Shown here piece by piece: positions 10,890 to 11,345 of a stretch of 64,000 bases of DNA. Position numbers and translations under genes: made by a program. Location: sequence record PV574017.1. One strand, given 5' to 3'. Position 1 is the first letter of the stretch. Each line of letters opens with the position of its first letter. This stretch comes from Escherichia phage EcM-vB1. The notes below the pieces were generated by a model. It saw only the letters and a list, made by a program, of their open reading frames with translations. It made no database searches and was not told the origin of the DNA.

Positions 10890-11345
10890 ATGACTACTCG
10901 TATCCGTGTTCTTCCTTATGGCCCTTCTGATTCAGTTCGTGAACTTACTTCTGCAATTAACACTAAGATTCAGGAACTTCGCTTAAATGCTAACGTAATG
11001 TCTCTGGTATCAGAAGGCTCTCGTTATCGTTCTCGAGTTGGTGATATTGTTGTCAACTATGGAAACCGTCGATATAATGATGCTTTCTTTGGTGGTGCAA
11101 CTGTATTGAACTCTGTGGTTGCCTTGAACCGAGCCGCTAACAAAATGACAGCATTTCAAACTTTGGAAGCTGCTGGGGTACATACTGTAGAATACACAAA
11201 CAGTGCTGCTCAGGCTTCAGAGTGGACTCTGGATAGTGTTGTTTATGAACGTGCTATTCTGAATGGTCATTCTGGAGAAGGTATCACTGTTCGTCTTCAG
11301 GGTGAAGGTGTAGCTCCCGCCCCCTCTATACCCGTGGCATTCTAG
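10890..11345 (+). CDS. ATP-grasp enzyme (RimK-like), N-terminal part of a frame-disrupted gene
   Basis: ATP-grasp N-domain pattern; continues in another frame at 11306-12082. Confidence 0.6.
   Translation: MTTRIRVLPYGPSDSVRELTSAINTKIQELRLNANVMSLVSEGSRYRSRVGDIVVNYGNRRYNDAFFGGATVLNSVVALNRAANKMTAFQTLEAAGVHTVEYTNSAAQASEWTLDSVVYERAILNGHSGEGITVRLQGEGVAPAPSIPVAF

Follow-up and report, generated by a model that had tools for sequence, protein, structure and literature searches.

A split ATP-grasp amidoligase gene in Escherichia phage EcM-vB1: a probable homopolymer under-call in a C-rich tract

In the sequence record of Escherichia phage EcM-vB1 (PV574017.1), a gene for an ATP-grasp protein is written as two overlapping reading frames that meet at a short run of C residues. 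The question raised by this locus is whether the change of frame reflects an error in run length, a genuine mutation, a recoding site or the border between two genes. The window, that is the whole stretch of 64,000 nt analysed here, was from a phiEco32-like podophage (Kuravirus, Gordonclarkvirinae). The split is best classified as an artefact of homopolymer length and, when tested, was unlike established recoding or phase-variation systems.

The split reading frame and its one-base repair

An earlier note, made from the nucleotide sequence alone, had described a single ATP-grasp gene whose reading frame changes by one base at a C-run, a description with which the homologues agreed exactly. The N-terminal half ended, as proposed, at the TAG codon at 11343–11345, whereas the frame one base lower followed a TGA at 11303–11305 and was open from 11306 to the TAA at 12080–12082; in the ORF listing, the two frames overlapped only within 11306–11342. 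The CCCCC noted at 11320–11324 was found in this overlap, with CCC-G directly 5′ to it at 11316–11319. The N-terminal ORF read ...GEGVAPAPSIPVAF at its C-terminal end, whereas the protein repaired by inserting one C after nt 11324 read ...GEGVAPAPLYTRGILGPRREWRVHVFEG... The added base produced the continuous protein that had been predicted, namely an ORF of 1194 nt encoding 397 aa, which matched ShigP1 XOF09000.1 ("ATP-grasp enzyme") at 100% identity from end to end and differed from phiEco32 gp80 at 2 of 397 residues. Alignment to the relatives placed the true frame change after Pro145. The split together with its one-C repair is far beyond chance. Coordinates of these features, and of the other interrupted genes discussed below, are listed in Table 1.

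Table 1. Features of the split ATP-grasp gene and of other interrupted genes in the window
Feature	Position (nt)	Strand	Remarks
Whole ATP-grasp amidoligase gene, phiEco32 gp80 (phi32_80) orthologue	10890..12082	+	1193 nt here versus 1194 nt in intact relatives
N-terminal ORF as written	10890..11345	+	151 aa; last 6 residues SIPVAF out of frame, then TAG
C-terminal reading frame	11306..12082	+	homologous part from CTC 11324 (Leu146); ORF caller start GTG 11372
C-rich tract CCCGCCCCC, site of missing base	11316..11324	+	9 nt; relatives 10 nt, CCCGCCCCCC or CCCGCCCCTC
C5 run	11320..11324	+	C6 in ShigP1, phiEco32, FS2B, Ec3-ASingh and PGN6866
Large terminase	60973-62513, lesion near 61347-61349	-	1541 nt; frameshift at GAGAA(A)GG
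Tail fibre	50346-52543, lesion 51392	-	one base lost
Tail fibre	44660-45627, lesion 45606	-	net one base lost
Glutamine amidotransferase (phi32_83 homologue)	8417-10446, lesion 10204-10208		A6 to A5
Gamma-glutamyl cyclotransferase (phi32_77 homologue)	12589-13006, lesion 12745-12751		(TC)4 to (TC)3
phi32_87 homologue	4841-5811, lesion 4888-4891		one base lost
Further homopolymer-frameshifted gene	91-311, lesion 154-158
Further homopolymer-frameshifted gene	1692-1936, lesion 1709-1713
Further homopolymer-frameshifted gene	53629-53822, lesion 53679-53682
Further homopolymer-frameshifted gene	30862-31253

Relatives, gene neighbourhood and state of the tract

Over 25 kb, the closest genomes were those of EcP-vB (PV591328) and EcK-vB (PV591327), both with 99.9% identity; MN03, FS2B and phiEco32 came next. 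Megablast with the gene itself matched 73 phage records, 69 of them at a coverage of at least 80%, with 99.8% identity to ShigP1, EcK-vB and EcP-vB and 98.2% to phiEco32; a more sensitive nucleotide search returned 109 records. The gene is the orthologue of the known phiEco32 gp80 and lies in a cassette ordered amidoligase, glutamine amidotransferase, two small ORFs, ATP-grasp, two small ORFs, gamma-glutamyl cyclotransferase and primase/helicase, its position being identical in ShigP1, EcP-vB and phiEco32. According to the citation in PMC11318856, the amidoligase of phiEco32 was treated by Iyer et al. 2009 (PMC3268129).

Alignment to intact homologues, which the earlier note had set as a test, revealed no two-gene layout. 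The nucleotide sequences of 14 relatives were examined, and none had an internal stop; of the best 120 homologues in the databases, 119 were single proteins of 362–451 aa. A shorter homologue (P0120, 244 aa), considered as an independent gene for the C-terminal half, was rejected, since it is cut by a contig end. The decamer CCCGCCCCCC was found in ShigP1, phiEco32, Ec3-ASingh, FS2B and PGN6866, and CCCGCCCCTC in YW01, Bas90, MN03, SU10, EK5 and Bas94; more divergent tracts occurred in 172-1, NJ01 and Paul, as well as in EP335 and ECBP2. Other forms among the relatives, such as CGTGCCCCTC, GATGCTCCTC and CGAGCTGAAC, each lay in one continuous ORF, and the protein sequence ...APLYTKGIQGPRREWRVHVFEG... 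was unbroken in all relatives compared. Among the full-length matches listed, the gene measured 1194, 1197 or 1203 nt, all in frame, except in EcK-vB and EcP-vB (1193 nt). The tract of these two siblings, CCGCCCCCC, also has 9 nt, with the base missing elsewhere than in the CCCGCCCCC of the window. Compared with all intact relatives, the window gene lacks a single base.

An exact look-up of both truncated products in a collection of 15 billion proteins gave no match. A pattern scan for the tract variants returned phiEco32 alone from IMG/VR and nothing from metagenome and GTDB genome contigs.

Protein family and predicted fold

The repaired protein was covered by PHROG 2599 in one stretch from residue 1 to 397 (E 3e-187), a family placed in the moron/auxiliary metabolic gene category, i.e. 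accessory. The phiEco32 gp80 protein (YP_001671825.1) and its Kuravirus/Gordonclarkvirinae orthologues belong to the same family and share the gene order; the window gene differs from them by the base missing from its C-rich tract, which splits the ORF as written. The name "S6 glutaminyl transferase" is a putative annotation label of the phiEco32-type enzyme. Pfam scores of the repaired protein for RimK (15.9 bits, cut-off 21) and Dala_Dala_lig_C (16.8 bits, cut-off 24) were below threshold, and precomputed PF08443 or PF07478 matches exist for more remote members of the family. Sequence matches in the PDB were weak, as exemplified by the RimK-type alpha-L-glutamate ligase 7qys (E 1e-3).

The AlphaFold2 model of a 99% identical protein (P0001) had a mean pLDDT of 83.4 and was confident over residues 1–284. 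Foldseek searches of the PDB with this model retrieved Ddl, RimK, LysX/ArgX and PsnB (E 2e-13 to 2e-11, about 290–335 columns). Since the matches to Ddl, RimK and LysX extend over about 300 columns, the ATP-grasp identity given in the earlier note holds, and the fold is the known three-domain alpha/beta ATP-grasp fold. It is common to RimK, D-Ala-D-Ala ligase and the LysX-ArgX ligases (PDB 5zct, 4iwx, 8evx and 3vpb), with a TM-score normalised by target of up to 0.69, although sequence identity to these enzymes was only 12–19% and the phage protein has an additional acidic linker and C-terminal beta-rich domain. The Mg/ATP-site region of the protein, AVDLI...WVLEVNTAPGL, aligned to GVDIL...VMEVNSSPGL of RimK. 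Residues D229, E241 and N243, which fall within this stretch, were invariant across 42 homologues, and the alignment to RimK (7qys) suggests that they would bind Mg/ATP. The break at residue 145/146 falls where a beta-strand is predicted to begin, midway through the ATP-grasp fold of the catalytic domain and within a block of pLDDT 96.

Following a disordered acidic linker (residues 285–329), the protein ends in the beta-rich domain of about 70 aa (residues 330–397, nt 11877–12082 of the window). These residues matched PHROG 20552, a family of stand-alone phage proteins of 82 aa (E 4e-58), and the domain may be a substrate- or target-binding module.

Homopolymer contractions throughout the window

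Run lengths in the window were compared with those in ShigP1, and ShigP1 was compared with phiEco32 as the control. Contractions in the window affected 1 of 8796 runs of length 2, 3 of 1877 of length 3, 4 of 362 of length 4, 5 of 86 of length 5 and 2 of 11 of length 6, the rate thus climbing from 0.16% at length 3 to 18% at length 6. Among runs of at least 3, there were 14 contractions versus 0 expansions (two-sided binomial p 1.2e-4). The control gave 0/431 at length 4, 0/107 at length 5 and 4/18 at length 6, the last value indicating that the length-6 class is noisier. For runs of at least 5 with exact flanks, the numbers shortened and lengthened were 6 and 0 in the window, 4 and 0 in EcP-vB, 5 and 0 in EcK-vB, and 1 and 0 in phiEco32. 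EcK-vB and EcP-vB each had their own private homopolymer contractions, and the three assemblies had in common the contraction of C4 to C3 at 51392 in a tail-fibre gene.

The substitutions were distributed otherwise. The window differed from EcP-vB and EcK-vB by 57–59 mismatches per 33 kb, and substitutions private to the window (versus EcP-vB, EcK-vB, ShigP1 and phiEco32) were clustered at 32471–32913, 33747–35458 and 46613–48281, with only one isolated. They were mostly three bases apart, as expected for synonymous-site differences in recombination patches, whereas the indels were scattered single-base homopolymer contractions. This patchiness, which resembles mosaic or recombination tracts, indicates that the window represents a distinct phage and not a re-assembly of EcP-vB or EcK-vB. 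It also indicates that the base identities look reliable and that only the run lengths are bad.

Other interrupted genes

Compared with the ShigP1 gene set, about 12 conserved genes of the window had a net frameshift with in-frame stops (Table 1). The large terminase gene was intact in EcK-vB, ShigP1 and phiEco32; at the site of its lesion, EcK-vB and ShigP1 have AAA and the window AA, and phiEco32 has AAGGG with the same total length. The C-terminal part of the terminase, about 120 aa, is encoded in a different frame. Without a functional large terminase, a phage is not viable. This frameshift is clearly an assembly error and, since the gene is essential, the window certainly contains errors of this type.

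The window and both siblings have the lesion in the glutamine amidotransferase gene, by which the C-terminal 80 aa, rich in Cys, move into another frame. The same gene apparently starts with ATT at 8417 (I/M-CGIV...), as in the RefSeq annotation of phiEco32; this start would supply the N-terminal Cys that a class-II amidotransferase should have, in which case ORF callers begin the gene too late, at TTG 8756. The gamma-glutamyl cyclotransferase gene measured 418 nt versus 420 nt in the relatives and was split into ORFs 12589–12765 and 12656–13006. Tail-fibre genes and a number of conserved early genes were frameshifted by further single-base contractions, of which some occurred in the window alone, others also in EcK-vB but not in EcP-vB, and others in both siblings as well.

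Explanations for the missing base

The split is most likely a homopolymer under-call, judging from the comparison of these sequences. The gene would then be a single, intact gene for a 397-aa ATP-grasp amidoligase within the conserved Kuravirus amidoligase/glutamine amidotransferase/gamma-glutamyl cyclotransferase cassette. One base of the decamer CCCGCCCCCC would have been under-called to give CCCGCCCCC, as an assembly or base-calling artefact, and its loss would shift the frame after Pro145 and bring about the premature TAG at 11343. Such an error is favoured by the contraction-only homopolymer indels found window-wide, which break even the essential large terminase. The contractions resemble the homopolymer errors of long-read or flow-based sequencing in being single-base, contraction-only, length-dependent and scattered through coding sequence, essential genes included, with good substitution accuracy. 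They depart from the usual error of this kind in that the missing base of the siblings lies in the CCC before G and not in the C6 run. A literature search on EcK-vB and EcP-vB found nothing on the sequencing platform. The tail-fibre loss common to the three assemblies shows that systematic errors can be shared, which explains how the same C-rich decamer can be misread in each of them. That the base is missing at two positions, as CCGCCCCCC in the siblings and CCCGCCCCC in the window, is more consistent with under-calling in a C-rich context than with a single inherited mutation.

A genuine one-base deletion, i.e. recent pseudogenisation of a dispensable accessory gene, possibly recurring by replication slippage in the C-rich tract, is unlikely but keeps an appreciable minor probability. 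It keeps this share because the halves are undecayed, the gene is accessory and the lesion extends to all three siblings, the tract having 9 nt in the window, EcK-vB and EcP-vB versus 10 nt in 14 other relatives. A real knockout of an accessory gene would be tolerated, and undecayed halves fit a very recent mutation as well as an error. Moreover, C6 is just one synonymous variant, since related phages have the T-interrupted run CCCGCCCCTC. However, the differing 9-nt configurations would need two independent events within 4 nt, and neither half showed further decay, as seen from the identity of the repaired product to the ShigP1 protein. In addition, this assembly has lesions of the same kind in other conserved genes, the large terminase among them, so that they cannot all be real, and a spectrum of contractions only, dependent on run length, is what error typically produces. 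C6 is also shorter than the tracts that are usually hypermutable in vivo.

A somewhat more doubtful possibility is that CCCGCCCCCC is a mutational hot spot at which the three siblings independently lost one base, at two positions, thereby turning the amidoligase off. If so, the split would be a naturally occurring loss of function, or an on/off polymorphism, in the peptide-modification cassette of the phiEco32 type. As recorded, the tract has 9 nt in the three assemblies versus 10 nt elsewhere, but the same three assemblies carry error-like contractions genome-wide. Phase-variable contingency tracts typically have 7–8 or more residues. The long homopolymer tract that marks phase variation was lacking here, as the longest state was C6 and many relatives have C4-T-C.

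Programmed recoding, by -1 ribosomal frameshifting at C CCC or by transcriptional slippage on the C run to yield the full-length enzyme, is very improbable. A tRNA-Pro on CCC at 11322–11324 could re-pair at CCC 11321–23, the next codon then being CTC, which is the exact homologous sequence, and the overlapping frames fuse to a sensible protein as they do at phage -1 frameshift sites such as those of the tail-assembly chaperone G/GT type. Unlike those sites, this locus had no conserved slippery heptamer, stimulatory structure or conserved two-frame layout. The zero-frame codons GCC CCC TCT contain no canonical X XXY YYZ heptamer, so that only a single-tRNA slip could occur, and the downstream RNA (11316–11420) folded unremarkably (MFE -23.6 kcal/mol, z-score -0.67), with 43 of 200 shuffled sequences folding at least as well. 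The tract varies synonymously among the 14 relatives, all with one ORF, and single proteins in 119 of the 120 best homologues likewise stand against recoding. Since the 11 closest relatives have either CCCGCCCCCC or CCCGCCCCTC, there is no conserved slippery site. A programmed -1 frameshift was rejected on these grounds, namely heptamer, downstream structure and conservation.

That the halves are two separate genes of a split ATP-grasp enzyme, as the two ORFs annotated separately in EcP-vB might imply, is hardly credible and was rejected, since the break at 145/146 lies inside a fold that aligns over about 300 columns to Ddl, RimK and LysX, no Shine-Dalgarno-like motif was present in the 25 nt before GTG 11372, the frame-0 TAG is absent in relatives with ATTCAAGG at this place, and the homologues are single proteins, the sole short one ending at a contig end.

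Implications for annotation

With a homopolymer under-call as the preferred explanation, the value of the finding is mainly in quality control. The split ATP-grasp gene and about a dozen other split genes need to be repaired or flagged before annotation, and the split should be entered neither as a pseudogene or recoding site nor as a pair of new small proteins. Were the frameshift real, it would only show that the accessory amidoligase is dispensable in one lineage.

The sibling records present comparable interruptions, several of them in essential genes. The annotation of EcK-vB has split genes for scaffold, ejection and virion proteins, and EcP-vB names both ATP-grasp halves separately as "metal ion binding protein", two entries that show how such errors propagate in public annotation. 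Both records are annotated on one strand only, with 26 features in PV591327 and 97 in PV591328.
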